Below, piece by piece: positions 238-12,127 of a DNA stretch of 12,127 bases. Every line of letters begins with the position of its first letter. Positions within the stretch are counted from its first letter, which is position 1. Both the position numbers and the translations under genes were made by a program. The stretch comes from a virus (Duplodnaviria; Heunggongvirae; Uroviricota; Caudoviricetes), in the IMG/VR virus record IMGVR_UViG_2645727673_000001, one strand, 5' to 3'. The notes under the pieces are model-generated. The model did no database searches. It was not told the DNA's origin and was given only the letters and a program-made list of their open reading frames with translations.

Positions 238-885
238 TCAGCGACCAATCACCACAACCTGACCACCGTCCCCTTCGTCTGCCGTGCTGATCTCCTGAGA
301 AACCACCCGCGACCCCACACGCATTTCACCGTACAGAACAGGCAAAACATTGCCCTGAGCAACCATGTTATCCAGTGAGGAGAAATAGGTGTTCTGTTTG
401 CCGTTATCTGTACTGGCTGCCGTGGGCGTCCTGGCTTTCGGTGCCAGCATCTGGGCCACACCACCCAGGATCATACTGGCCCCTGCCGCATACATGCCCG
501 ATACAGCCGCAGCACCCAGCCAGCCCACAGGGTTCCACCATGCCACCGCAATCAGCGCCGCCCCCAGCACCACCTGAAACACACCGCCACTTTTAGCTCC
601 CGCCATACGCGGCACGATGTGAATCACGGCACCATTTTCCAGCGGCTCATTAAGACGGGCAGATAATTCATTTTCTCCCGCATCACGCCCGGCAATGCGC
701 ACCTGATACCAGCCCTCATTCAGTTTCTGGCGAAACGACGGAAGCTGTGTGGCCAGCGCCCGGATGGCTTCAGCCCCCGTTTTCACACGAAGGTCGATGC
801 GGCGGCCAAATCGTTGTAAATCCCCGTAAAGGCAGATGCGTGCCATGCCCGGTGACGCCAGAGGGAGTGTGTGCGTCGCTGCCAT
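238..885 (-). CDS. I: Tail assembly protein I
   Basis: 215-aa ORF with ATG start. N-terminus MAATHTLPLASPGMARICLYGDLQRFGRRIDLRVKTGAEAIRALATQL and C-terminus NGKQNTYFSSLDNMVAQGNVLPVLYGEMRVGSRVVSQEISTADEGDGGQVVVIGR match lambda gpI as I recall it. Gly/Ala-rich hydrophobic middle segment. Lies between K and J. Confidence 0.93.
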   Translation of the reverse strand: MAATHTLPLASPGMARICLYGDLQRFGRRIDLRVKTGAEAIRALATQLPSFRQKLNEGWYQVRIAGRDAGENELSARLNEPLENGAVIHIVPRMAGAKSGGVFQVVLGAALIAVAWWNPVGWLGAAAVSGMYAAGASMILGGVAQMLAPKARTPTAASTDNGKQNTYFSSLDNMVAQGNVLPVLYGEMRVGSRVVSQEISTADEGDGGQVVVIGR

Positions 886-1526
886 TTGTCGGTATACCTC
901 TCTCGTTTGCTCAGTTGTTCAGGAATATGGTGCAGCAGCTCGCCATCACCACAGTAAATGGCGGCATGATTCGGCACCGATGAACCAAAACAGCACAGCA
1001 GCACATCGCCCGGCTGCGCCTCTGTCAGTGCGACACGGTAAAAACCAGTCGCCTCCATATTGTCAAGATAGAGATTCTGGCCGTTACGCCACCAGTCATC
1101 TCCGCGATGAAAATCCGGCATCTCAATTCCCGCCAGATGGTATGCATCCCGGAACAGCGTGTAACAGTCCGTCACCCCGTGCTCAAAGCGCCGCCCGGTA
1201 AGATGTGGCACACAGCGGAACTTGTGAATCGCCCCGCGGCAGACCAGCCACCACGGCAAATCACTCTGCACCTGCAGCCGCCGATCGGCCTCACTCAGCC
1301 AGGGCAGACCACCGGGATGACTGTGGACCAGCGCCACAATCTCACCCTGCATTTCTGCCCGCAGCCAGTCCTCCGGAGCCATCCGGAAATACGCCTCCGG
1401 CTCACCGGAGATATTCACGCAGGGAAAATATCTTTCTCCCTCCGGCATTCTCACCACGAAGCCGCACGACTCCGCTGGCGCACATCGCCGGGCGTGCGCC
1501 AGAATCGCTGATTCTGTCTCTGTCAT
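783..1526 (-). CDS. K: Tail assembly protein K (MPN/JAMM domain plus NlpC/P60 domain)
   Basis: 247-aa ORF with ATG start 5 nt after the L stop codon. JAMM motif HSHPGGLPWLSEAD (HxHx7Sx2D) is present, and a downstream Cys in GVTDCYTLF fits an NlpC/P60 catalytic cysteine. Highly similar to lambda gpK. Its 3' end overlaps the start of I by about 100 nt. Confidence 0.93.
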   Translation of the reverse strand: MTETESAILAHARRCAPAESCGFVVRMPEGERYFPCVNISGEPEAYFRMAPEDWLRAEMQGEIVALVHSHPGGLPWLSEADRRLQVQSDLPWWLVCRGAIHKFRCVPHLTGRRFEHGVTDCYTLFRDAYHLAGIEMPDFHRGDDWWRNGQNLYLDNMEATGFYRVALTEAQPGDVLLCCFGSSVPNHAAIYCGDGELLHHIPEQLSKRERYTDKWQRRTHSLWRHRAWHASAFTGIYNDLAAASTFV

Positions 1527-1531
1527 GGGAT

Positions 1532-2230
1532 TTACTGCGAAAGTTTGTTAATGGAAAGGTAACCGCCAAAGTTGCCGACGTTATTGCGAAACTTACAGCC
1601 GCTAAGGCATTTGCTGCATTTATCCTTCGTGATATCGGACGTCGGCTGGTCATATTCATCCGCGACTGCCGGACCGTGATAACCGCACTCATCACCGCGA
1701 TAGGTCCAGGTGCAGGTGTTGGCCAGCATGATACGCCCCGGAAAAACAGCACCGTCCGTTTCCGTCGGCGTGGACAGTACAAAAGAAGCACTGACCGCAC
1801 TCAGTTCACTGCACTGCTCGATGCGCCAGCTGCTGATCACCTCCTGCTCCTGGTCGGCATCACTGTTTCCGTTGACGAAGTTCACCGCATCCAGAAAACG
1901 GGCGTAAACCTTACGCCGGACCACCGTTCCGCCGACCAGACTCTGCAGATCTTCCGCCATACCGGTGACCATACCGTGCAGGTTAGAAACCGTCAGTGTC
2001 GGACGGGCAGCACTGCCCTTGCCGTTCAGTTCAAATCCTGTCCCCTGAATGGGGTATGCCTGATACTGCCGCCCCTGCCAGGTGACCGGCTCACCTTTTT
2101 CGTTCTGCTCATTACATAAAAAATAACGTTCACCACCGACCTCTGTCAGATCGATTTCCCAGAGCACCACCTGGGCTGACTGAGTGAGGCGTGTCGTCTC
2201 ATGATGTGTTTCCTGTGGAATATCCTGCAT
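1532..2230 (-). CDS. L: Minor tail protein L
   Basis: Translation MQDIPQETHHETTRLTQSAQVVLWEIDLTEVGGERYFLCNEQNEKGEPVTWQGRQYQ ... CSKCLSGCKFRNNVGNFGGYLSINKLSQ matches lambda gpL, including the C-terminal cysteine cluster. Start chosen at the second of two tandem ATGs (2230) because AGGAGG lies 5 nt upstream; the first ATG (2233) is only 2 nt from it. Confidence 0.95.
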   Translation of the reverse strand: MQDIPQETHHETTRLTQSAQVVLWEIDLTEVGGERYFLCNEQNEKGEPVTWQGRQYQAYPIQGTGFELNGKGSAARPTLTVSNLHGMVTGMAEDLQSLVGGTVVRRKVYARFLDAVNFVNGNSDADQEQEVISSWRIEQCSELSAVSASFVLSTPTETDGAVFPGRIMLANTCTWTYRGDECGYHGPAVADEYDQPTSDITKDKCSKCLSGCKFRNNVGNFGGYLSINKLSQ

Positions 2231-2239
2231 CATGGCCTC

Positions 2240-2569
2240 CTATGCCACGACCTGTTCAAAATCTGCCGTTATGGTTACCCACAGCGCCCCCACGCTTGCC
2301 GACCATTTACGACAAACCACCCTAATCGGCTTCCAGTCATAAGGTGGCGTCCACTGAAATGCGCGGACGCCACCGTGCCGTTCCAGAAAGGCTTTTAAAG
2401 ATGGGTGTTCACATTTACGAACACGTATCGTCACGCTGTAAGTCGACAACTGGTTATTCAGTCCCGCCGCACGACGCTGTTCATAACCATCGCCCAGCTT
2501 CACTGTCACCACTTTCGGTTCTGATACCACATTCATATCCGGGCGCACTTTCCAGTGAAACGTCTCCAT
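2240..2569 (-). CDS. M: Minor tail protein M
   Basis: 109-aa ORF METFHWKVRPDMNVVSEPKVVTVKLGDGYEQRRAAGLNNQLSTYSVTIRV ... ADFEQVVA, same length and clear similarity to lambda gpM. Its ATG overlaps the H stop codon (TAATG). Confidence 0.95.
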   Translation of the reverse strand: METFHWKVRPDMNVVSEPKVVTVKLGDGYEQRRAAGLNNQLSTYSVTIRVRKCEHPSLKAFLERHGGVRAFQWTPPYDWKPIRVVCRKWSASVGALWVTITADFEQVVA

Positions 2570-5500
2570 TACCGATATGCTCCACTTAACCGACCACCAT
2601 CACGGGCCTGCTGTTGCATAAAGTCCGCTGCCGCTTTTTTCCCGAGGTCATAAACCACCTTCAGGGCAGCCGGACCTATCTGCCCGTTCGTGCCATCGTT
2701 ATTGATCTCGATGTTGTACTGCGGGGCAAACATCGCCATACCTGAACCACCAATATCCGCCACAACCCCCAGCTTACCGTCAGCACCACGACGCAGTGGC
2801 AGAATGGCTTCAGGTCCAGCTTCCCCCATCACACCTGCACCTTTTGCAAAAGCAAAAAACGTCGGACGGTTAACCACCGTGCCACTGTAGCGACTCAAAT
2901 CAGCAGACTGATAAACACCACCATCAGCATTGGGCGTCACACTGGCAGTTGCTGCACTCCCCCAGCCAAACGCCGAACCAATCCCCTTAACTGCCTGCAT
3001 CATGGACATCTGGGCCATGATTTTTGCCAGATCAGAAAGGAGCGAGGCGGTAAAAGATTTGAAGTTCAGTTTTCCGGTAGTACAGAACGTTGCCAGTGCA
3101 TTACCTGCACTGTTAAATGCCGCTGTAAGCATCTGCTCAGCAGTGCCTGCCGCATTATCCGCATCTGCCGTGAAATTCTGAAACGCCCGCATAGCACCGT
3201 TTTTCCAGTTACCCTGAGCAATTTCAAGCTGTTGCCAGTAACGGCGATTCTCATTCAGTTGTCGGTTCAGGCTCTCCGTCAGCGCCTGCTCGGCCTTTCT
3301 GTAGTCATCCGTGTTATATGTCCCTTTCTGCTCACTATCCCGCCTCAACTGCTCCAGCTGTTGCTGGTATTTCTGGCGAAGACTCAGTTGTACCTGATAT
3401 CGCTGCCGCTGCTGATCACCCATACCCACCGTGGCGATATCCAGGTCATGTTGCTGACGCTGAGCGCGCTCTTCTTCAGCCAGTTGACTGGTCAGCTGAA
3501 TTGTTTTTTTCTTCAGCTCGTTGAGTGCCGTCTGTTTCTGAAGCTCCTGCTGTTTTACATCCAGCAGCGTCAGTGCCTGAATCAGTTCATCTTTACGGGC
3601 CAGCACACTCTTTTCATCTGCCGTCAGTTTTTTCCCGTCCAGGTCGCTGATGCGCTGCTGCAGAGCCAGAAGCTGTTTATGCGCTTCTGTCATCTTTTCA
3701 GTGGCAATGCCTGCTGACTGTCTTGCAGCAGCAATCTGCCCTTCCACCTGTGCCTGTTGCTGACTGTACTGCAGCAATAACCGGGTGGCCTCATCATTAC
3801 GGGTTTCGCGTGTTTTTTTCTTACCGGATGCCAGGGCTTTCTCGTAACGTTCATTTTCACGTTGTATCGCCGCATCCCTGACAGCCTGGTCGGCGTACTG
3901 CATGGCATTAATACGCGCAATTTCACGCTGATGTCGTGCTGCTTCCGTTTCATTCATCCGGTTCAGTGCAGCATTTTCAGCATTACGTCGTTTCTGTTGC
4001 TCCTGATAATTCCGCTCTGCCTGCTCTTTTGCATCCTGCAAATCCTTCTGGCGTTTTTTCTCCTGAAGATCGTTAAGACGCTGCTGATCGTATTCAACCT
4101 GAGAAGATGATGCCGTCCAGGGGAGTCTTTTCGCCCGCGACACTTTCTCCTGTAAAGCGGCAATCTGTTCATCCAGCGAGTCTTCACGACCAATATTCAT
4201 GGCCGCATCCCAGAAACGACTCCACAAATCAGACAGATACTTCAGCGTACTGCCAAGCGCATTGAGGTTATTATCAATATCCGCAGTACGCCGACCGGTT
4301 TCCTCTGCCAGTGCAGACATGGCTATCCGTGCAGCATCACTGGACCGTCCCTGATCCCCAAGGACACGTATCTGCTCAAGCTGAGTGGCAGTAAGAAAAT
4401 GCAGCTCATTGTCCAGAGCCTTCGCGGCATTTACAGGATCATCCTTCAGCCGCTTAAACTGATTTATGGTATCGCTGACCGACTGGCCAACCGATCGCTC
4501 CATCTGTGCGGCAGCTCTCGCCACCATACCGATATCGTTTCCACGAAATGCACCACTCCCCACCACCTGCGCCAGCGCACCGGCTGCAGCATGTTGCGTG
4601 ATACCATTCCCGGAAATAGCACGACTAAGCGTCCACAGCTGCCCGGCAGTGACTCCGGCATAATGCCCCGTCAGCGACAACTGGCGGTTAAATTCTTCCC
4701 CCTCCTTCTGACCGTCATACCAGGCTTTACCCAGACCATAGACGGCCGCGGCAATACCGCCAATAACCCCGCCCAGCATCATGCCTTTCGGTGACATCAG
4801 TGTGTCTATCCATCCGGCACGGTTAGCCAGCGTTATCCCGGATCCCCTCAGCGCACCTAAATTGCCGCGAGCCAGTTCACCTATCAGAACGCCTATCTCC
4901 TGGCGGGCCGCTGCACTTTTCAGACCCAGCGAATGCGTGGCTTTTCCTGCCTGCTCCATTTTGCGGATATACACTTCTGCAGCACTGCTTACCCCCAGTT
5001 GGGCAGCCTTAGCACGAAGCAACTCAGAAGAAGAAAGATTCTGGCGGGTTGCCTGCTCTTTAAGCTGACGGATAAACGCCACTTTCTGTCGGGTAGCCTC
5101 TTCCTCAGCCTGTGTAAGAACACGGGTTTTCGCCGTAACCTCAGAAATCAGCGCCAGATAATCCTGCTGACCAATCCCGCCACTGTGTCTGGCCTGTCGG
5201 ATCTGCTGCTGAATACGCTGTAATTCCTGCAGCCCCGCACTGGCCTGTTTCACACTGTCAATCTGACGATAAAACGCAGCAGCCGCTTTATCCTGAGCCT
5301 CCGCCAGAGCCATGGCCTGCGCCTGTTCATCGCGCATTTTCTGGCTCAGCGCCTCCATGCGCTGGCGGGTTTTCTCCACCTCGCGAGCCATGCGTTCATG
5401 AGCCTGTGCGTTCTTCTCCACCGTCTGCGCATGGACGGAGGCGGCTGTTGCAGCCGAAGAAGCCGCCTGCGTTGTCTGCCGGGCGGCCTGAGTCTGACGC

Positions 5501-5643
5501 TCCATAAAACGCTGCATACGGGCAGAAGACCGTTCTGCATCGCTGGCGGCACCATTCAGAAGGTTTTTGATACGGGGAATTTCATTTTTAAACTCTGCCG
5601 CATCAATCCCCAAATCAATGACCAGGTTGGCTATCTGGTCCAT
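2569..5643 (-). CDS. H: Tail tape measure protein H
   Basis: Long ORF with a Q/A/E/R/K-rich central coiled-coil-like region. N-terminus MDQIANLVIDLGIDAAEF and C-terminus NNDGTNGQIGPAALKVVYDLGKKAAADFMQQQARDGGRLSGAYR align with the lambda gpH termini. Start set at the ATG at 5641-5643 (GGAGGT 7 nt upstream); the track start at 5673 is a TTG extension. About 1024 aa. Confidence 0.95.
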   Translation of the reverse strand: MDQIANLVIDLGIDAAEFKNEIPRIKNLLNGAASDAERSSARMQRFMERQTQAARQTTQAASSAATAASVHAQTVEKNAQAHERMAREVEKTRQRMEALSQKMRDEQAQAMALAEAQDKAAAAFYRQIDSVKQASAGLQELQRIQQQIRQARHSGGIGQQDYLALISEVTAKTRVLTQAEEEATRQKVAFIRQLKEQATRQNLSSSELLRAKAAQLGVSSAAEVYIRKMEQAGKATHSLGLKSAAARQEIGVLIGELARGNLGALRGSGITLANRAGWIDTLMSPKGMMLGGVIGGIAAAVYGLGKAWYDGQKEGEEFNRQLSLTGHYAGVTAGQLWTLSRAISGNGITQHAAAGALAQVVGSGAFRGNDIGMVARAAAQMERSVGQSVSDTINQFKRLKDDPVNAAKALDNELHFLTATQLEQIRVLGDQGRSSDAARIAMSALAEETGRRTADIDNNLNALGSTLKYLSDLWSRFWDAAMNIGREDSLDEQIAALQEKVSRAKRLPWTASSSQVEYDQQRLNDLQEKKRQKDLQDAKEQAERNYQEQQKRRNAENAALNRMNETEAARHQREIARINAMQYADQAVRDAAIQRENERYEKALASGKKKTRETRNDEATRLLLQYSQQQAQVEGQIAAARQSAGIATEKMTEAHKQLLALQQRISDLDGKKLTADEKSVLARKDELIQALTLLDVKQQELQKQTALNELKKKTIQLTSQLAEEERAQRQQHDLDIATVGMGDQQRQRYQVQLSLRQKYQQQLEQLRRDSEQKGTYNTDDYRKAEQALTESLNRQLNENRRYWQQLEIAQGNWKNGAMRAFQNFTADADNAAGTAEQMLTAAFNSAGNALATFCTTGKLNFKSFTASLLSDLAKIMAQMSMMQAVKGIGSAFGWGSAATASVTPNADGGVYQSADLSRYSGTVVNRPTFFAFAKGAGVMGEAGPEAILPLRRGADGKLGVVADIGGSGMAMFAPQYNIEINNDGTNGQIGPAALKVVYDLGKKAAADFMQQQARDGGRLSGAYR

Positions 5644-5965
5644 AACGCACACCTCCGGAAATACCTTCTCCAAGATGCATCAGTTCTTCGTCCGTTCGCT
5701 CCGGTATCCCGTTCTCTTCCGGTAAAAGGCTGAAATCAGCCACCGCAGCATCACTGCTGCCGGACACCATTCTCACGATCAATGCCTTCAGCGAGGCAAA
5801 CTGCGCATCCATCCACACATCACTGAAGCTCTGCATCCGGAAATAATCGCCCCACTCACCAAGCTCAGTGGCCGACATTTCCGACAGCATCCGCCGCCAG
5901 TCTGCCCGCCGGAACTCCCGGGCAAGCCGCATGACAAACTGCATTTCCCGCGTCAGGACTTTTCC
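5615..5965 (-). CDS. T: T segment of the tail assembly chaperone G-T, expressed as a -1 frameshift extension of G
   Basis: The ORF at 5615-5944 lies in the -1 frame relative to G and overlaps the G 3' end. That frame is open upstream through the heptamer GGAAAAG (minus strand, about 5959-5965), one base different from the lambda slip site GGGAAAG as I recall it. Position between G and H matches lambda. The 5' boundary is approximate (slip site). Confidence 0.75.
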   Translation of the reverse strand, partial: GKVLTREMQFVMRLAREFRRADWRRMLSEMSATELGEWGDYFRMQSFSDVWMDAQFASLKALIVRMVSGSSDAAVADFSLLPEENGIPERTDEELMHLGEGISGGVRYGPDSQPGH

Positions 5966-6342
5966 GGCGTCAGCGCCTCATGCTCATCATCCCCGGCATT
6001 ATCAATGGCCCCCATACCGCTCAGCGACAGAACCATCTCCGCCCCCGCACCCAGGGCATCATACGACCATGTTGTAATAACGGATGCGCAAAGCGTCTCT
6101 ACATCCTTAGACTGATCCGCATTCCACAGTGAGCGGGAAACCAGCCAGGCATTGATATCCATCCCCATCCGCAGAAAAGCAATCTGTCGTTCAGCCTCCG
6201 GCAGTTCTCCCTCCCCGGCATCAAACTTTGCCGTTCGCTGCTGAACAAACGCCAGATATTCAATTCTCTGCAGCCCGGACAGCTCACTGAGCACCACGGA
6301 CTGTTTTTCATAATTAAACGTGCCCTGTTTCAGAAACATCAT
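5953..6342 (-). CDS. G: Tail assembly chaperone G
   Basis: ORF ending EHEALTPEKS-stop, located between V and T/H as in lambda. Start set at the tandem ATG ATG (6337-6342) with GGTGGAG just upstream; the track start at 6381 is a TTG that runs through the upstream hairpin. Confidence 0.85.
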   Translation of the reverse strand: MMFLKQGTFNYEKQSVVLSELSGLQRIEYLAFVQQRTAKFDAGEGELPEAERQIAFLRMGMDINAWLVSRSLWNADQSKDVETLCASVITTWSYDALGAGAEMVLSLSGMGAIDNAGDDEHEALTPEKS

Positions 6343-6355
6343 GTTCTCCACCTGC

Positions 6356-6379
6356 AAAAAAGCCCCGAATAACCGGGGC
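6356..6379 (-). terminator. Rho-independent terminator-like hairpin between V and G
   Basis: Minus strand reads GCCCCG-GTTATT-CGGGGC (perfect 6-bp GC stem, 6-nt loop) followed directly by TTTTTT, then the G ribosome-binding site and start 13 nt later. Confidence 0.5.
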
Positions 6380-6391
6380 AAATGATGAGTA

Positions 6392-6760
6392 TCATCCTGT
6401 TAACCTGCGGCGCTGACAGCCACCGTATTTGATACGAAACGCGCAGACTTCACCGGAGTCGAACAACTGAACCAGTTTTTTCTGCCCGCTGTCACCCGGA
6501 CGCCAGGCCAGCGTCGCCGAAGTATCACCGACGGATTTCTGCCCCTGGGTTGTCGTTTTCCAGTCTGCATCTTCATCATCGAGATAAGTGTCATCTTCTG
6601 CATCAGCGGTCATTTCGCCAGGTTGCAGATCCTTCACCATCGCAAGACGCAGCCAGTCAGTGTCCGATAAAGGGTTCGCAAACGCATCGCCCTTGCCGGT
6701 GTACATCCAGAACGTCGTTCCCGCACCTTTCGTTTTTGCCAGTGGATTTGGTGTGGTCAT
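6392..6760 (-). CDS. V: Major tail tube protein V homologue, short form (122 aa): N-terminal domain only, possibly truncated
   Basis: [86 protein letters not shown] aligns with the first ~110 residues of lambda gpV. After FRIKY the sequence diverges ([10 protein letters not shown]) and stops. AAGGAGGT ribosome-binding site 4-5 nt upstream of the ATG at 6758-6760. Confidence 0.8.
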
Positions 6761-6770
6761 TGCCACCTCC

Positions 6771-7172
6771 TTAATTCGTGTACGTGATCTGGTACGTGAT
6801 TTCCGCCATCGCCCAGGTGGCCATCTCATTATCACGTTGATAGTTAAAACCGAGTGGGATCAGGGTGTCGATGAGTCCGGAAAGTGCCGGTACATCATTC
6901 AGGGCCGGGAAAATGGTGCTCTCCATCCACATATCCAGCTCTGAATCCGGTGCCTGTGCCCGGATGAAGACAGCAATATGCAGAACAGCCTGCCAGTCAT
7001 CTTCATCCGTCATTTTTCCGGTGTACTGAGCATCACTCAGCCACACCGCCACGGCAGGCAGTTCCTGCGCATCAACAAATGCCGGAAGCCCGTCAAAAAA
7101 CGTGGCGCTGTCTCCACACTGTTCCCGAAGGCGTGCCAGTACGGCCTGGCGGATTTGTGTATGTCGGTTCAT
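6771..7172 (-). CDS. U: Tail terminator protein U
   Basis: [52 protein letters not shown] ... matches lambda gpU (ATFFDG, PAVAV, PDSELD-WMES motifs). Start chosen at the ATG at 7170-7172, which overlaps the Z stop as ATGA; an in-frame ATG 4 codons upstream (7184) is the alternative. The stop codon lies inside the V ribosome-binding site. Confidence 0.9.
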
Positions 7173-7747
7173 CGGGTCAGCCATAACCTCAGTTGTTGTT
7201 TCAGTGCATACCCCAGCTGTTTCGGCATTTCCGCAGCAATGATGCGGTCGCGGGCATCTTCAAATGCCTGTGTCAGCGGTCCGGACAGCGGGATTTTCAC
7301 CACATCAATGGGGTAACGATTTTTGCCATCAATACGCCGCATCACATGCCAGCGACCATTCGCCAGTTGCTGAATAAACGCATCCCGGAAAAGATATTTA
7401 CCCACCTTCAGCACACTGCCACGGTACTGCAGTTTTCCACCACGCCGGGCCAGTCTGACCCGGGCTGTCCCCAGCTTAATGGCGGGCAGATTGCCCCGGT
7501 TAACGCGGATCCTGGCCGTCATTTTTCCTGACGGACTGGCTTTAAACACCCGGACACGCTGACGTACCAGTTTCAGGGGGATCCCTTTCACCTGGTTATC
7601 TCCCGCAACGGTATTCCCGGCAACCTGCCGGGTGGCAACCGAGACCGCTTTCTGTGCCACACGGTTTATCGCCCATGCGCTGGCCTGTGGCACCATACGG
7701 GTATCAAGGCTGTTCAGATTGCGGATGGCATTCTCAAGCCCCTTCAT
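7169..7747 (-). CDS. Z: Tail completion protein Z
   Basis: 192-aa ORF MKGLENAIRNLNSL ... [63 protein letters not shown], same length and strong similarity to lambda gpZ. AGAGGTG 5 nt upstream of the ATG. Confidence 0.93.
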   Translation of the reverse strand: MKGLENAIRNLNSLDTRMVPQASAWAINRVAQKAVSVATRQVAGNTVAGDNQVKGIPLKLVRQRVRVFKASPSGKMTARIRVNRGNLPAIKLGTARVRLARRGGKLQYRGSVLKVGKYLFRDAFIQQLANGRWHVMRRIDGKNRYPIDVVKIPLSGPLTQAFEDARDRIIAAEMPKQLGYALKQQLRLWLTR

Positions 7748-7758
7748 CCCACACCTCT

Positions 7759-8034
7759 TTACTCAATAAAGATCATTGGCTTACCGTTAAAGCGTTCATG
7801 CCGTGTGACCGTCCATTGTTGTCCGTCATAAACAACGCGATCCCCGCGCCGTGGGCGGTATCCCGAAGAAAACACCACCAGAGATACCGCAGGTCCGGAC
7901 AGAGCATTCAGCTCTGCCAGTGTTTCTCCCGGGATCACAGTCATATCGACATCATTAATCGAGGCTGTCTTTCCCATCTTTCTGACCGTGATCGCATCCA
8001 TACGCGCTGCCAGCCGGGAAAAGGGATCAGACAT
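7759..8034 (-). CDS. Small head-tail joining protein occupying the lambda FII position (not lambda FII-like in sequence)
   Basis: 91-aa ORF with ATG start, tightly packed between the DUF2190-like gene and Z. Function assigned from position and size; the sequence does not resemble lambda FII as I recall it. I believe homologues are often annotated as head-tail joining protein, or misleadingly as ATP-binding sugar transporter-like protein. Confidence 0.6.
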   Translation of the reverse strand: MSDPFSRLAARMDAITVRKMGKTASINDVDMTVIPGETLAELNALSGPAVSLVVFSSGYRPRRGDRVVYDGQQWTVTRHERFNGKPMIFIE

Positions 8035-8350
8035 TGAGTTTTACCGGCACTTCTTCTGCACTGGTTCCGGCATCTGCCCAGACAACCCCGACCAGCGGAT
8101 CAGAGCCGCTGTTAGTCAGCTGAACTTTTCCGGACTTCAGATAAACCTTCTTACCCGTTTTCATGTCATCCGTTTTCAGCTTAGGCAGCATAAACACACC
8201 TTCGGTCAGGCCGTCGCCTGTTTCACCCTGTGGAATATCGGTCAGTGCCACCGCAAAAACATCACCCACCTGCACCAGATCTCCGCTGCTGATGGCTGCA
8301 CTGGCAACAATCGCCACCGTTTTTCCTTCTTCTACAAAATTCTTTGCCAT
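8027..8350 (-). CDS. DUF2190-like small head protein (putative decoration/cement protein)
   Basis: 107-aa product MAKNFVEEGKTVAIV...VQVGDVFAVAL...GETGDGLTEGVFMLPK...GKKVYL fits the pattern I associate with DUF2190 proteins encoded just after major capsid genes. GGAGA 5 nt upstream of the ATG at 8348-8350; the track start at 8395 lies inside the upstream terminator and is rejected. Confidence 0.6.
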   Translation of the reverse strand: MAKNFVEEGKTVAIVASAAISSGDLVQVGDVFAVALTDIPQGETGDGLTEGVFMLPKLKTDDMKTGKKVYLKSGKVQLTNSGSDPLVGVVWADAGTSAEEVPVKLNV

Positions 8351-8363
8351 AACTGTCTCCGCA

Positions 8364-8382
8364 CAGCCCCGTTCAGGGGCTG
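8364..8382 (-). other. Stable hairpin upstream of the DUF2190-like gene start (possible RNA stability/processing or pause element)
   Basis: Perfect 7-bp inverted repeat CAGCCCC / GGGGCTG with a 5-nt loop, 13 nt upstream of the start codon, with no following U-tract. Confidence 0.3.
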
Positions 8383-8393
8383 ATTTCAGGTAC

Positions 8394-8413
8394 AAAAAAA
8401 GCCCTTACGGGCC
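8394..8413 (-). terminator. Terminator-like hairpin just downstream of the capsid gene
   Basis: Minus strand reads GGCCCGTAAGGGCT followed by TTTTTTT (plus-strand A-run 8394-8400). Short GC stem with a GTAA tetraloop, about 25 nt after the capsid stop codon at 8437-8439. Confidence 0.45.
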
Positions 8414-8436
8414 ATCAGAGTTGTTGTCTGCGACGT

Positions 8437-10467
8437 TTACGCCGTACATTTCACCAGACCGCGGTGATCAACTGGCGCGACACCGGCGTCAATACGCACT
8501 TTCGTTGTCACGCCATCCACACTGAAGCCCTCCATCTGATCAATATATGGCGTATCCACACCGTTGAGATAAGCCACTTCAATAGTATCGGAGCCTTTTG
8601 ACGCAGCCAGGTAGAAGGTGGTCTGGCTGTTATCATCAAGACGAGGCTCTGCAATAACGGTCGCAAAATCTTTCACCGGGTTAATAATACCGGCGTTAAT
8701 GTCAGCCCCCTTGACACTTGAGGAGCGAATGACCTGGTTAGCAACAGACTCCATCGCCGTCGGTACCAGTACGAACGCAGGACGAATATTCAGATGACGC
8801 TCCCCCTCTTTCTGAACGCGCATCAACTGGCGGGCTTTATCCAGCGATGCCACGTCCATTGCAGCGCTCTCCAGTACGTTTGCATGTTTTGCTTTATCGA
8901 ACAGACTTACATTATCTGTGGAGATTTTCGGGTTAGACGTCAGAATGGCATAAACCAGATCGGCAATAGTGGATTTCGCCGCACGGCCCAGTTTCATCGG
9001 GACATCGGTCAGCATATTCAGATCATCATTGATAATGGCCTGACGGGTGATACTGAACAGCTCGCCATAGGTCGCCAGTGCAATAGTGGCCTGTTTATCT
9101 CCGGTGGTGACGTATTTATATTCCGCCCCTTCACGCACCTGACGCAGAGCACTGAAGCCCCCCATACCCACACGATGGGCAATTTTAAAATCAGACAACT
9201 GACCTTTCCGCGTCCACTGTTCATAGGTTTCAGGGGCATCTTCCCAGCCCTGCAGAATGGCTTTGTTCGCAACATCCAGCAGAATATTACCGAAGTCAGA
9301 CGTACTGTGTGTGAACGCCGCACCGACCATCTGCATCGGGTTATAACTGGAAACCCCAATACCCCGTTCAGTCAGTGACATACGGGCATATTCACGCAGG
9401 GTCATCCCGTTGTAGACATTATCACGTTCGGTTTTTTCAAATCCGGCACGCGCCATCAGCGCCTGGCGGATCCCGTCCCCCACAAAATTACCGTTACCGG
9501 CATAAATATGAGCCGGGGTATTTTTATTGGATGGCGTGGACTCGCGCCCCATCTCGTTCAACAGCTTTTCGCGGGCCTGCTCCAGCGAACATTCAGGATC
9601 GGCAAGACACTGAGCCTGCAGCGTCTGATAACGCCCGCCAAACATGGCAAACAGATCATTAATACCGTTTACACGCGCTTTTTGCTCTGCCAGTACCTGC
9701 GCACGGATACTGTTTTCATCCACCACGGGTGCTGCTGCCTGCACTGGCGTCCGGGAGGCTGCAGGTTCATCATCCTGTACGCGTGGAGCACTGTTGCGTG
9801 GCGGAGTAATCATGTTTCGAATGGATTCCGGCATCTTTTTAAATTCCTCTGTACGTTTTGACTGAATACATGCCATTGCCTTAACGGCTGGCGTCACCTG
9901 ATCAGCAAATCCCTGTGCCAGACATTCGGCACCGGACATCCAGGTCTCATCCGCCAGCATGGCAGCAATTTCATCGGTGGTTTTCCCGGTTTTCTGTGCA
10001 TAAGCGGGTAACAGAACCGCCGCCTCAACTTTATCGAGCAGGTCGGCATAGGTGCGCATGTCCTCCGCATCACCGCCCGTAAAGCCAAATGGTTTATGAA
10101 TCATCATGAAGGAGTTTTCCGGCATAATGACCGGGTTTCCCACCATCGCAATGACCGACGCCATTGACGCCGCCACACCGTCGACATAAACGGTAATGGA
10201 CGCACCATGTGTTTTCAGTGCATTAAAAATGGCGATGCCTTCAAAGACATCGCCACCCGGTGAATTAATATGGAGATTAATGTGGGTGATATCGCCCAGT
10301 GCATTCAGATCACTGATAAACTGCTTCGCCGTAACACCCCAGAAACCAATCTCGTCATAAATATAAATATCCGCGTCACTCTGGTGACCTGCCTGCATCC
10401 TGAACCAGGAATTATTCTTCGGACTGGTCGTCGGTGTACTGCGGCTACTGTCGTTTCGTTGCGGCAC
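8437..10467 (-). CDS. Prohead protease (ClpP/S14-type) fused in one ORF to the major capsid protein
   Basis: The N-terminal region carries ClpP signature motifs INSPGG, GVAASMAS (catalytic Ser) and MMIHKPFG (catalytic His), close to E. coli ClpP INSPGG / QAASMGA / MIHQPLGG. A linker follows, then about 400 aa that I interpret as an HK97-fold major capsid domain from position and size. Start proposed at the GTG at 10465-10467, with AAAGGAGG 5 nt upstream, overlapping the portal 3' end by 23 nt. Alternatives are the ATG at 10398 (weak ribosome-binding site, would remove the conserved SWF segment) and the TTG at 10659. Confidence 0.85.
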   Translation of the reverse strand: MPQRNDSSRSTPTTSPKNNSWFRMQAGHQSDADIYIYDEIGFWGVTAKQFISDLNALGDITHINLHINSPGGDVFEGIAIFNALKTHGASITVYVDGVAASMASVIAMVGNPVIMPENSFMMIHKPFGFTGGDAEDMRTYADLLDKVEAAVLLPAYAQKTGKTTDEIAAMLADETWMSGAECLAQGFADQVTPAVKAMACIQSKRTEEFKKMPESIRNMITPPRNSAPRVQDDEPAASRTPVQAAAPVVDENSIRAQVLAEQKARVNGINDLFAMFGGRYQTLQAQCLADPECSLEQAREKLLNEMGRESTPSNKNTPAHIYAGNGNFVGDGIRQALMARAGFEKTERDNVYNGMTLREYARMSLTERGIGVSSYNPMQMVGAAFTHSTSDFGNILLDVANKAILQGWEDAPETYEQWTRKGQLSDFKIAHRVGMGGFSALRQVREGAEYKYVTTGDKQATIALATYGELFSITRQAIINDDLNMLTDVPMKLGRAAKSTIADLVYAILTSNPKISTDNVSLFDKAKHANVLESAAMDVASLDKARQLMRVQKEGERHLNIRPAFVLVPTAMESVANQVIRSSSVKGADINAGIINPVKDFATVIAEPRLDDNSQTTFYLAASKGSDTIEVAYLNGVDTPYIDQMEGFSVDGVTTKVRIDAGVAPVDHRGLVKCTA

Positions 10468-11920
10468 TGCTGCCTCCTTTATCACTGGCCGGATCGGTAT
10501 CAAATACCAGGTCCAGCTTGCGGTTTTCATCAATTTCGGCCTTGCGCCGACGTTTGACATCATCCGGATTACGACCACCTGCACGTACCCAGTCTGATTC
10601 TGTCGCCGCTCCACCACGAATCTGGATTTTCCAGGCCTCAGCCTCCTTAACAGGGTCAATCCACGGCATCACCGGTCCGGAATACACCGCGGTATACAGT
10701 GAAGAACGGTCAAGATCGCGGGGTAGCCTGATAACACCGGATGCCACAGCCTGTTTCAGCCAGGCACGATACATCGGGCGGGTGACGGCACCAATAAACC
10801 AGTCCTGCAGGATCAGGTAGCCATCAGTGGATTCAACCAGCTCCTGACGCTGGGCGCTGTAAGTGCCGTTATAGTTGCGCGCTGTACTGGAAAAACTCAG
10901 ACGACTGCCCGCCGCCACGGCACGCAACTGAGCATTACGAAAAGTTTCAAGGTTAGGATTTGGGCGATCCGACTTCACCATTCCGATTTCTTCGCCGGGT
11001 TTCAGATCGTCGTAAATAATGCCTGGCTGAATGGTAAGCTCGCGTTCATTCTCCTTGCTGTCATTACCATCCGTTTCATAGCTCTGTCCGTCGCCTTTGC
11101 GGATGTACATCCCCAGAGCAGCGGCGACCCTTGCTGCAGTCAGCTCAGAATCTTCATACTCTTTCAGGGCGCTGAGGCGGATCAGCACACCGGACAATAA
11201 AGACGTCCCGCGCATCTGGTGCAGACGGCGAACAAATTTAAGATGCAGCATTCGCTCTGCATCCACTTCTTTGGTTTCCATCTGCCGTCCGGATACAGGA
11301 CGACTTTTATACACCAGATATTTTTCGGGACGCCCCCAGTCATCAACAAACACGCCCTGATTCAGCCTGTTGCTCTCATCACTGGTCATGGGAATAAAGT
11401 CCGGCTCGAGCGCCTCCAGCCAGAAATGAACACCGGCAGAAGGCGTCAGGCTGTTTATGCGCCCGGAAACCATCTGGGCAAACACCTCACCATCGCGCAG
11501 CCAGGTACGCAGCATCAGACGTTCCAGCATCGGACGGGTAAACTGCCCGGTGACCTCCGGACTGACAGACCATTCACTCCATCGGGTACGTATCTCCGCT
11601 GCCAGATCACGGGCAATGGCCCCATTGCGTAATACCGGATGTGGCTCGACAATAATCCCGTTTTTCCCCACCACCCGTTCTTCCAGCTTGTCAAATACAC
11701 CAATGACCAGATCGTGGTTGTTATCAAGGTAACGGGCCTGCTCACGTAACGACACGGCCCCGTACTGGCTTAACTGGTCGGCAGTTCGGTTCTCCCGTCG
11801 GGCTTTGTGTGTCCGCGTCGTTTTTACGGCCTCATAAGCCTGGATCACCGCACGGGAACGCAGCCTTGCCGCTTTCCATCCTGGTGAAAAAACGCCAATC
11901 ACATCATCAAGAATTGCCAT
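10445..11920 (-). CDS. Portal protein
   Basis: 491-aa ORF from MAILDDVIG, immediately after the gpW-like gene and before the protease/capsid gene. Its ATG overlaps the W-like stop (TGATG), with GAGG 5 nt upstream. Size and position are typical of a portal; family (lambda B-type versus other) not resolved by eye. Confidence 0.85.
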   Translation of the reverse strand: MAILDDVIGVFSPGWKAARLRSRAVIQAYEAVKTTRTHKARRENRTADQLSQYGAVSLREQARYLDNNHDLVIGVFDKLEERVVGKNGIIVEPHPVLRNGAIARDLAAEIRTRWSEWSVSPEVTGQFTRPMLERLMLRTWLRDGEVFAQMVSGRINSLTPSAGVHFWLEALEPDFIPMTSDESNRLNQGVFVDDWGRPEKYLVYKSRPVSGRQMETKEVDAERMLHLKFVRRLHQMRGTSLLSGVLIRLSALKEYEDSELTAARVAAALGMYIRKGDGQSYETDGNDSKENERELTIQPGIIYDDLKPGEEIGMVKSDRPNPNLETFRNAQLRAVAAGSRLSFSSTARNYNGTYSAQRQELVESTDGYLILQDWFIGAVTRPMYRAWLKQAVASGVIRLPRDLDRSSLYTAVYSGPVMPWIDPVKEAEAWKIQIRGGAATESDWVRAGGRNPDDVKRRRKAEIDENRKLDLVFDTDPASDKGGSSAATKRQ

Positions 11921-12108
11921 CAGAACCTCGCCAGCCGGTACCCGGGATGCCCACGTCGTCGTGTAATCAGAGCCGCAAGGCGGCGCTCCCACTCCTGCCG
12001 CCCCTGCCGGATCTCAGATAAGTTTTCCATGGTCATCTGCTGACCATTAAAAGTGACGGATTTTCCGTCCAGCACCGCCATTTCAGCTTCCGTATAACGC
12101 TGAATCAT
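11920..12108 (-). CDS. W: gpW-like head-tail connector protein (true start may lie at or beyond the right edge of the window)
   Basis: C-terminus ITRRRGHPGYRLARF resembles lambda gpW ...TQRRRGPAGFYV, and size and position before the portal match. The reading frame stays open upstream of the ATG at 12106-12108 to the window edge, and alignment with lambda W suggests a few more N-terminal residues. Confidence 0.7.
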   Translation of the reverse strand: MIQRYTEAEMAVLDGKSVTFNGQQMTMENLSEIRQGRQEWERRLAALITRRRGHPGYRLARF

Positions 12109-12127
12109 GGCTTCAATATCATTCTGA

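Follow-up and report, generated by a model that had tools for sequence, protein, structure and literature searches.

The window, the whole stretch of 12,127 nucleotides of viral DNA that was analysed (IMG/VR record IMGVR_UViG_2645727673_000001), is the minus-strand late morphogenesis operon of a lambdoid Escherichia coli prophage of the mEp460/cdtI type. It is 97.5% identical at the DNA level to mEp460 and 99.9% identical to a prophage of E. coli WAT; with cdtI included, these relatives span 97–99.9% DNA identity and share the genes and junctions of the window. W, portal and protease, followed by Z-U-V-G-T-H-M-L-K-I, are collinear on one strand in the order found in lambda, and Pfam or NCBIfam models match portal, Z, U, V, G, T, H and L. 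Rfam and tRNA scans of the window found no RNA genes. A lambda-like late operon would be read as one transcript, through internal terminators, from a Q-antiterminated promoter; that promoter and Q fall beyond the window. Within it, three promoter-like sites are present, against 8.5 expected from shuffled sequences, and there are two terminator-like hairpins. The coding regions are listed below.

11920–12127, minus strand: W, head-tail adaptor at the gpW position, truncated 5' at the edge of the window (comparison with mEp460 and WAT)
10445–11920, minus strand: portal, 491 aa, terminated early by a TAG (Pfam Phage_portal_2, E = 2e-82)
8437–10467, minus strand: ClpP-like prohead protease/major capsid fusion, 676 aa, GTG start (NCBIfam, Pfam)
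8027–8350, minus strand: DUF2190/Phage_cement_2 head decoration protein, 107 aa, starting at ATG 8350 (Pfam PF09956)
7759–8034, minus strand: Gifsy-2 family protein (PF13856) at the FII position, here called joining (Pfam)
7169–7747, minus strand: Z, minor tail protein Z (Pfam PF06763, full length)
6771–7172, minus strand: U, tail terminator, 133 aa (Pfam profile positions 1–130 on residues 2–131)
6392–6760, minus strand: V, tail tube protein, 122 aa, shortened (383-nt deletion; Pfam)
5953–6339, minus strand: G, tail assembly chaperone, 128 aa (Pfam PF06894, full length)
5615–5977, minus strand: T reading frame, C-terminal part of G-T (Pfam Phage_tail_T)
2569–5643, minus strand: H, tape measure protein, 1024 aa (TIGR01541, E = 6.5e-93)
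2240–2569, minus strand: M, 109 aa, the length of lambda M
1532–2233, minus strand: L (TIGR01600)

Gene content

The tail module is lambda-like, with U and V being 53% and 62% identical to their lambda homologues, and the lambda head genes C/Nu3, D, E, FI and FII are replaced by a single protease/capsid fusion, a DUF2190 cement protein and a Gifsy-2 family protein. The fusion scores 979.7 bits with NCBIfam NF045540 (cut-off 475), which places it in this family, and consists of a Pfam CLP_protease domain (residues 31–192) and a Phage_capsid_4 domain (residues 376–673). In the DUF2190 protein, profile positions 1–103 of PF09956 fall on residues 6–105. The joining protein covers PF13856 profile positions 1–97 with residues 1–88 and matches PDB 2PP6 (E = 1e-19). 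Because it has no sequence similarity to lambda FII, its label derives from gene position and the Gifsy-2 family, which together suggest a role in head-tail joining.

The protein W matched no family in the Pfam search. It is annotated with 70 aa in mEp460 and WAT, where there is a 4-nt overlap between its start and the stop of the terminase gene, and on this basis the W start lies about 5 nt outside the window (at ~12132). The ATG at 12108, where the range given in the initial annotation ends, is internal and simply the first ATG within the window.

The V gene carries an out-of-frame deletion of 383 nt at 6426/6425, so that the match to Pfam Phage_TTP_12 ends at profile position 95 of 135. The deletion is private to the window in comparison with mEp460, cdtI and WAT, and was found in none of the 153 loci that cover the site. 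A prophage copy with a broken V cannot build a normal tail tube; attempts to obtain virions by inducing this strain are unlikely to succeed, though late proteins would remain measurable.

The T frame lies in the -1 register with respect to G and opens at 5977, which leaves only 22 nt of it before the G stop. This short stretch contains a shift-prone A AAG within a candidate -1 slippery heptamer, G GAA AAG, that differs from the canonical X XXY YYZ pattern. The position of this candidate site is shared with the G/T frameshift of lambda, where the site reads G GGA AAG.

Start sites

The initial annotation preferred short reading frames to the longer TTG- or GTG-initiated ORFs of the ORF track, a choice that is borne out by several lines of evidence. 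Alignments with lambda set the starts of U (7172), V (6760), G (6339, the ATG to which M1 of lambda G aligns) and H (5643, where lambda H aligns within one residue); the N-termini of U from ASU11 and Pmp14 also align to 7172. For portal, the N-terminus of lambda B has diverged too far to be of use in placing the start. The ends of the Pfam profiles are consistent with the chosen starts, and the Shine-Dalgarno (SD) energies favour them as well, against a background with a mean dG of -3.5 in which an energy of -8 or below occurs at 5.5% of positions. The PGAP annotation of the 99.9% identical WAT prophage agrees on these starts and shows a 23-nt portal/protease overlap.

The long ORFs have open reading frames in the sequence as their sole support, and we give virtually no credence to their being real genes. 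Their SDs are weak (TTG 10659, -5.4; TTG 8395, -4.9; TTG 6381, -4.1; TTG 5673, -3.0; GTG 6835, -2.4), and the lambda N-termini match the short starts instead. For DUF2190 and G, the extension to TTG traverses a terminator hairpin, with TTG 8395 falling in the T-tract itself. Phage ASU11 reads TCG in place of TTG 10659, a substitution silent in portal, and in many species the protease frame is closed 20–35 codons upstream of a conserved block.

For the protease/capsid fusion, comparison across 74 species supports GTG 10467 as the start. An AAGGAGG SD (10473–10479; dG -11.6 kcal/mol) lies within portal, 5 nt before this codon, in a site whose predicted accessibility is in the 92nd percentile, and is conserved in ASU11, mEp043 and Enterobacterales loci. 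When the start with the best SD is taken, portal and protease overlap in 70 of the 74 species, and in 55 of them the overlap is unavoidable. The deposited annotations of mEp460, cdtI and mEp043 use a later ATG (10398), which would abolish the overlap and leave a spacer of 46 nt here and 13 nt in mEp460. This placement agrees with distant ClpP-type phage proteases, which align from around that residue, and with the NCBIfam profile, which starts nearby. We nevertheless consider it very unlikely: the position holds Ile, Leu or Phe rather than Met in 33 of the 74 species even though the upstream SW[FY] block is conserved, the SD is weak (-2.6 vs -11.6), and PGAP picks GTG 10467. In Pasteurella phage Pmp14, the equivalent codon is ATC and the sole start of the protease ORF precedes the restored portal stop by 61 nt. 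Protease may also be made from both starts.

The 23-nt overlap between portal and protease that had been described is present in the window, but its length results from the premature portal TAG, a minority allele. In the common allele, as in mEp460, this codon is GAG and translation continues to TAA 10414–10412, giving a portal of 502 aa and an overlap of 56 nt. Among 85 loci, 63 carry GAG, 11 carry TAG and 11 fit neither pattern. Searches of viral contigs (protease/capsid protein, U alignment and joining alignment) returned 97–100% identical loci only, which served for allele counts and are unsuited to divergence tests; the divergence comparisons drew on a genome-contig scan and hand-picked phage records.

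Gene junctions

All six stop/start junctions that the initial annotation had reported are present on the minus strand as described. Together with the other features located between or within genes, they are as follows.

11918–11922, minus strand: W/portal junction TGATG, 1-nt overlap (sequence)
10445–10467, minus strand: portal/protease overlap of 23 nt, from portal TAG 10447–10445 to GTG 10467 (sequence)
10473–10479, minus strand: AAGGAGG SD of protease, inside portal
8393–8413, minus strand: terminator-like hairpin GGCCCGTAAGGGCT followed by a T-tract, in the 86-nt capsid/DUF2190 spacer (terminator scan)
8027–8034, minus strand: DUF2190/joining overlap of 8 nt, ATGTCTGA, with stop TGA 8029–8027 and ATG 8034 (sequence)
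7169–7172, minus strand: Z/U junction ATGA, 4-nt overlap (sequence)
6765–6773, minus strand: U stop TAA (6773–6771) fused to the V SD GGAGGT (6770–6765), TAAGGAGGT
6356–6379, minus strand: terminator-like hairpin GCCCCGGTTATTCGGGGC followed by a T-tract, in the 49-nt V/G spacer (terminator scan)
5959–5965, minus strand: candidate slippery heptamer G GAA AAG for the G-T fusion (frame analysis)
5615–5643, minus strand: T/H overlap of 29 nt (sequence)
2567–2571, minus strand: H/M junction TAATG, 1-nt overlap (sequence)

The short overlaps are real, but the extensive coupling that had been read from them is overstated, as they account for four of the 11 junctions between 2230 and 12108. Two further junctions are long overlaps in which the downstream gene has its own strong SD. 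Another three are spacers of 6–11 nt, each with an SD that is strong at V and L and moderate at Z, and the remaining two are the spacers of 49 and 86 nt with the hairpins. Measured by distance, genes overlap or are separated by no more than about 6 nt at W/portal (-1), DUF2190/joining (-8), Z/U (-4), H/M (-1), M/L (+6, or +9) and L/K (+5), and lie far apart at capsid/DUF2190 (+86) and V/G (+49).

The hairpins, at 8413–8400 and 6379–6362, occupy the only two long spacers of the operon. The one after the capsid gene is a rho-independent terminator in the mEp460 annotation, and its type recurs in 68 of 80 species, compared with 1.7% of control segments. The one after V is the top-ranked terminator-like site of the window and is likewise an annotated terminator in mEp460. 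The capsid/DUF2190 and V/G junctions hold these terminator hairpins and cannot be coupled.

The initial annotation had taken this close packing as typical of phage late operons, and lambda indeed shows similar overlaps from A/W through K/I (A/W -4, W/B -4, B/C -20, Z/U -4, T/H -8, H/M -4, M/L -1, K/I -103). The ATGA at Z/U is identical in lambda and the window, H/M and W/portal are short overlaps in both, the protease start lies inside portal in both, and both have a K/I overlap of 103 nt; the lengths differ at H/M (-1 in the window vs -4), W/portal (-1 vs -4) and T/H (-29 vs -8). As evidence for start sites, for which the junctions had also been used, the overlap motif is poor, because about a third of the stop triplets of the strand have it: 35% of coding-strand stop triplets form part of an ATGA or T[GA]ATG. 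The starts themselves are right. The density of short junctions was also considered as an unusual property and dropped, because six of the 13 junctions of the operon fall in the -8 to +6 nt class, compared with 24% of co-directional E. coli gene pairs (PMC10666635), and the enrichment is not significant (binomial p = 0.06).

What goes beyond chance is the conserved geometry among diverged relatives. The -8 overlap of cement and joining genes is found in five lineages with three stop codons, from Escherichia to Pasteurella phages (TGA in ASU11, TAG in Pmp14 and TAA in mEp043). Z/U, W/portal and H/M stay within -11 to +2 nt in most comparators. At W/portal, ASU11 and K279 have an overlap of 1 nt and lambda, Gifsy-1 and mEp043 one of 4 nt; at H/M, the overlap measures 4 nt in lambda, ASU11 and mEp043. 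Z/U is an ATGA (-4) in lambda, -4 in mEp043, -1 (TAATG) in Pmp14 and -11 in Vibrio K279. The exceptions to this range are ASU11 and Gifsy-1 at Z/U: the genes are 12 nt apart with a separate SD in ASU11 and split by an IS in Gifsy-1, so any coupling between Z and U is dispensable. At the next junction, the annotated RBS of Gifsy-1 covers the U stop. Geometry, start sites and conservation are thus real, but amount to ordinary and already annotated lambdoid gene packing.

Probable modes of translation

The SD energies vary among the starts of the operon. Strong SDs precede protease (-11.6), V (-13.4, 5 nt before ATG 6760 and the strongest of the operon), H (-10.8, a GGAGG 8 nt upstream of ATG 5643), L (-10.2) and I (-9.3). 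L starts at ATG 2233 or 2230, leaving a spacer of 6 or 9 nt, and the M stop TAG is fused to its GGAGG. Portal has a GAGG 5 nt upstream of its ATG (-7.1), Z follows joining after 11 nt with its own GAGGTG (-7.1), and DUF2190 has a GGAG 6 nt upstream. Joining has no usable SD (-3.0), the nearest SD to U is 12 nt away, M has a weak one (-5.6, spacing 10 nt), and K, which starts 5 nt after the L stop and just beyond the range of the initial annotation, has none (+0.7).

Based on these data, the operon is packed in the manner of lambda and probably translated by three modes. Only the SD-poor starts of joining (-8), U (-4), M (-1) and K (+5) look like candidates for termination-reinitiation, in which a start located -8 to +5 nt from the upstream stop, and lacking a usable SD, would be translated by ribosomes that have just terminated; this would link the output of these genes to that of the upstream gene. 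The portal start (-1, with a moderate SD) may use both reinitiation and independent initiation. Independent initiation at strong SDs would serve V and L directly after a stop, Z with its moderate SD, and the starts that lie 23–103 nt inside the upstream gene (protease/capsid, H and I), permitting an output quite unlike that of the neighbour. In the third mode, a hairpin with a U-tract after the capsid gene and after V would leave DUF2190 and G uncoupled, each with its own moderate SD. A dependence of downstream genes on upstream translation along the operon is what the sequence would predict under this scheme, and our literature search found no expression, N-terminal or ribosome-profiling data for mEp460-type phages.

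Published systems provide precedents for the first mode. According to PMC10666635, reinitiation coupling in E. coli reporters requires an overlap or a very short distance and is nearly lost at about 20 nt. The pairs described by Huber et al. (2019, 2023) have overlaps of -4, -1 and -8, the three commonest configurations in E. coli and the same classes as in the window, with an SD contribution that varies from pair to pair; coupling was measured there by reporters and is only predicted here, and the overlaps of -23/-56, -29 and -103 fall outside this class. In phage f1, an inherently defective SD-less start at V/VII is rescued by a nearby upstream stop (Ivey-Hoyle and Steege 1989, cited in PMC12548453). 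This pair is a model for joining, U, M and K by mechanistic likeness only, since both phage and genes are different.

The overlaps could instead be a by-product of compaction or drift, with each gene initiating by independent 30S binding and no coupling at all. We regard this as unlikely but worth weighing, given that the motif occurs at so many stop triplets and the enrichment is not significant, that adjacent proteins such as U and V are needed in very unequal amounts, that Z and U are unlinked in ASU11 and Gifsy-1, and that the SD-poor starts are unoccluded. Sampson et al. in 1988 (PNAS) reportedly attributed the relative rates at which lambda late genes are expressed to individual initiation efficiencies. 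What compaction leaves unexplained is that four starts without a usable SD each lie within 8 nt of an upstream stop, and that the -8 geometry is retained while the stop codon varies between TGA, TAG and TAA. In addition, 13 of 14 similar overlapping pairs (five from E. coli and nine from H. volcanii) were strictly coupled (PMC6728339), which speaks against a complete lack of coupling.

Coupling might also arise if upstream ribosomes melted RNA structure that masks the downstream RBS, one of the two accepted models of coupling (PMC12548453). The H start, which lies 29 nt within the T frame, is relatively structured (13th percentile of unpaired probability) and would suit this mechanism. In the other starts, the predicted unpaired probability of the -15 to +5 region indicates open RNA (joining, M, K, protease, V and I, 79th to 98th percentile) or an average value (U), leaving H as the only low one. 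Structure-mediated coupling, unsupported by this RNA-occlusion analysis save weakly at H, is accordingly rather improbable as an explanation for the operon. The folding data reveal no occlusion of the SD-poor starts and are neutral with respect to reinitiation.

A stronger form of the three-mode scheme, in which joining, U, M and K would be obligate reinitiation sites that fix subunit ratios and the portal nonsense allele would measurably alter protease/capsid initiation, appears doubtful. If true, cement to connector, Z to U, H to M and L to K would be ratio modules, with the strictly conserved -8 overlap ATGNCTRR as the clearest case of reinitiation, and the recurrent nonsense allele, by shortening the overlap from 56 to 23 nt, would change initiation at the GTG. 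The biological stakes are small, as overlapping and abutting lambdoid late genes are textbook knowledge and the NCBI pipeline already annotates the starts.

The practical value lies in annotation hygiene. The protease/capsid starts deposited for mEp460, cdtI and mEp043 are about 23 codons too late, and the RefSeq record of mEp460 starts U at an earlier in-frame ATG (7184). Starts are likewise placed too late for the joining gene in the mEp043 record and for U in that of Vibrio K279.

Identity of the operon

All long ORFs of the window lie on the minus strand, and the plus-strand GC skew is negative throughout. The window (12.1 kb) shows 97.5% identity to phage mEp460 and several further phages, including cdtI, and over positions 5900-10700 (4.8 kb) a prophage of E. 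coli strain WAT matches it at 99.9% identity. Family searches confirmed a portal of the lambda family, a fusion of ClpP-like prohead protease and major capsid protein (NCBIfam NF045540, 980 bits), a DUF2190/Phage_cement_2 decoration protein, a Gifsy-2 family protein, and the tail genes Z, U, V, G, T, the tape measure H, and L. Gene order and junction pattern are the same as in the lambda late operon, in agreement with the initial annotation, which regarded the overlaps as typical of phage late operons. The head module, by contrast, differs from that of lambda in its single protease/capsid fusion gene, DUF2190 cement protein and Gifsy-2 family protein, and is an already catalogued family. The phage type has been sequenced and annotated before, and its junction pattern is ordinary and known.

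The fusion (8437-10467, minus strand; NF045540) combines protease, scaffold and major capsid protein in 676 aa, with no separate capsid gene, and is mislabelled in several public records as 'head maturation protease', 'terminase protein' or 'Nu3'. Names given to the joining protein (7759-8034, minus strand) are likewise misleading, both 'DNA breaking-rejoining protein' (PGAP) and 'ATP-binding sugar transporter from pro-phage' (Pfam Gifsy-2/PDB 2PP6). No sequence similarity between this protein and lambda FII was found, so its head-tail joining role is assigned by gene position only.

Junction geometry

Every junction of the operon was recomputed from the sequence, and the six overlaps and near-overlaps originally listed are all present with the geometry described.

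Junctions of the operon (negative values, overlap in nt; positive values, spacer in nt between upstream stop and downstream start)
11922-11918 (-), W/portal, TGATG
Portal TAG 10447-10445, protease GTG 10467 (-), portal/protease, 23-nt overlap
ATG 8034, TGA 8029-8027 (-), DUF2190/joining, 8-nt overlap
7172-7169 (-), Z/U, ATGA
TAA stop of U joined directly to GGAGGT, which lies five bases upstream of V ATG 6760 (-), U/V
2571-2567 (-), H/M, TAATG
Capsid/DUF2190, +86, within 2230-12108
Joining/Z, +11, within 2230-12108
V/G, +49, within 2230-12108
T/H, -29, within 2230-12108
M/L, +6 or +9, within 2230-12108
L/K, +5, just outside this range
K/I, -103, just outside this range

The range 2230-12108, proposed for the coupled genes, needs correction at its upper end, as comparison with mEp460 and WAT identifies 12108 as an internal ATG of W. 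The gene has 70 codons in both, starting about 5 nt past the window edge with a 4-nt overlap with the terminase stop. At L/K (1526-1534, minus strand), the 5-nt spacer is accompanied by no Shine-Dalgarno sequence (SD) at all, which adds K to the candidates for coupling; K begins 148 nt later in the RefSeq record of lambda, though the same ATG exists there. The K/I overlap of 103 nt (783-885, minus strand) has the same length in lambda and contains a strong SD (-9.3 kcal/mol) within K, while the mEp460 annotation of I uses a GTGA start at 786 that lacks an SD.

Start sites

The starts initially chosen over longer TTG- or GTG-initiated ORFs are all upheld by alignments, profile ends, SD energies, terminators and PGAP, whose annotation of the WAT prophage has identical starts throughout. 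By alignment to lambda, U begins at 7172, V at 6760 and H at 5643, and G begins at 6339, the latter of two neighbouring ATGs. The U start is also confirmed by ASU11 (MKHREIR) and Pasteurella phage Pmp14 (MKIHSQIR), and Pfam profiles match joining, Z, U and G end-to-end from the chosen starts. With the longer TTG starts, DUF2190 and G would cross the window's two highest-ranked terminator-like hairpins, both of which are annotated rho-independent terminators in mEp460, and TTG 10659 is TCG in ASU11, a synonymous change in the portal frame.

Anti-SD pairing energies (kcal/mol) at the chosen start and at the long-ORF start
Protease, -11.6 and -5.4
V, -13.4 and -2.4
H, -10.8 and -3.0
DUF2190, -6.6 and -4.9
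G, -6.4 and -4.1

A different protease/capsid start, the ATG equivalent to 10398, past the portal, is deposited for mEp460, vB_EcoS-569R4 and mEp043, whereas PGAP uses the upstream GTG with AAGGAGG. The two were compared in 80 loci from different species (49-99% identity), 74 of them scorable. The residue at the 10398-equivalent position, immediately downstream of a conserved SW[FY] block, is Met in 41/74, Ile in 23/74, Leu in 9/74 and Phe in 1/74. The last in-frame start codon before this block is still within the portal in 55/74, and the best-SD start overlaps the portal in 70/74, most commonly by 56 nt. AAGGAGG-N5-GTG is kept in Enterobacterales, ASU11 and mEp043, and in Pmp14 the sole start codon of the protease ORF aligns with the window GTG. 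Judged by these comparisons, GTG 10467 is the correct start, and the deposited ATG (L001 3160-3230; L328, mEp043, 4200-4320) lies about 23 codons late.

The 23-nt portal/protease overlap is present here, but is allele-specific. A premature TAG (10445-10447, minus strand; GAG in mEp460) removes the final 11 residues of the portal and shortens the overlap from 56 to 23 nt. Among 85 loci, TAG is a recurrent minority allele, found in 11, including E. coli WAT, with GAG in 63 and neither pattern in 11. In the Pmp14 record (L085 5700-5985), the annotated portal stops short; homology at its C-terminus extends in another frame as far as a TAA near 5983, suggesting either a frameshift or a sequencing error in the record.

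Conservation of the junctions

The overlap motif alone is not beyond chance, with 35% of stop triplets in all frames of the coding strand sitting within ATGA or T[GA]ATG. Junctions of the -8 to +6 class are similarly unremarkable in density, at 6/13 against the 24% of E. coli co-directional gene pairs reported in PMC10666635 (binomial p = 0.06). The non-random aspect is the conservation of the junctions. ASU11 (57% protein identity), mEp043 and Pmp14 (30% identity) all retain the -8 cement/joining overlap, and the sequences found in this comparison, ATGTCTGA, ATGCCTAA and ATGTCTAG, place all three stop codons in one register. The Z/U junction has the form ATGA in both lambda and mEp043; Pmp14 has TAATG, and in Vibrio phage K279 the two genes overlap by 11 nt. 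In ASU11 they lie 12 nt apart, and U has its own SD. W/portal and H/M alternate between -1 and -4 across relatives.

Two deposited starts at these junctions are late, that of U in K279 (L329 7492-7570) by about 26 codons, the true GTG overlapping the Z stop by 11 nt, and that of the joining gene in mEp043 (L328 6641-6674) by 11 codons, the true ATG overlapping the cement stop by 8 nt. In Gifsy-1 (L327 6262-7392), an IS transposase lies between Z and U.

Probable modes of translation

Four starts have no usable SD, namely joining (-3.0), K (+0.7), U (nearest SD 12 nt off) and M (-5.6, 10-nt spacing), and all four lie -8 to +5 nt from the upstream stop. PMC6728339 and PMC10666635 describe reinitiation by the terminating ribosome as demonstrated in E. 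coli for starts adjoining a stop, with coupling gone at a distance of about 20 nt. The geometry of the SD-poor starts is of this kind, and they are probably translated by reinitiation. Independent initiation is likely for the strong-SD starts lying deep within the preceding gene (overlaps of -23/-56 at protease, -29 at H and -103 at I) and for those that closely follow a stop (V and L, as well as Z, whose SD is moderate), and agrees with neighbouring genes, U and V for example, being required in very unequal amounts. The two long spacers with hairpin and U-tract would be unable to couple. Coupling through RNA unfolding is at most weakly supported, at T/H only, because local structure prediction finds the H start alone relatively structured and the SD-poor starts not hidden. 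A literature search found no expression data, and we infer the whole sorting into three modes from the sequence. The extensive coupling initially proposed is a plausible reading at some of the junctions, and is proven at none.

Hairpins, candidate frameshift site and V deletion

Terminator-like hairpins with U-tracts lie at 8393-8413 and 6356-6379 (minus strand), directly after the genes for capsid and V, which are the virion's two proteins of highest abundance; in lambda, comparable hairpins follow D and E. A terminator-like hairpin follows the capsid gene in 68/80 species with unrelated stem sequences, compared to 1.7% of control coding segments, which suggests a conserved partial terminator or mRNA-stabilising 3' structure.

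V (6392-6760, minus strand) carries a 383-nt out-of-frame internal deletion at 6426/6425 with 2-nt microhomology, leaving 122 aa with a frameshifted 10-residue end, compared to 247 aa in mEp460. No copy of the deletion was seen among 153 loci spanning this position; the ten best E. coli matches listed also lack it, each giving a two-piece alignment over the junction. The truncation and its absence from relatives indicate that this copy of the prophage probably has a defect in tail assembly; an assembly artefact is also possible. In the putative programmed -1 frameshift region of G/T (5959-5977, minus strand), the T frame becomes open just 22 nt before G terminates, with G GAA AAG as a candidate slippery heptamer; lambda has G GGA AAG.
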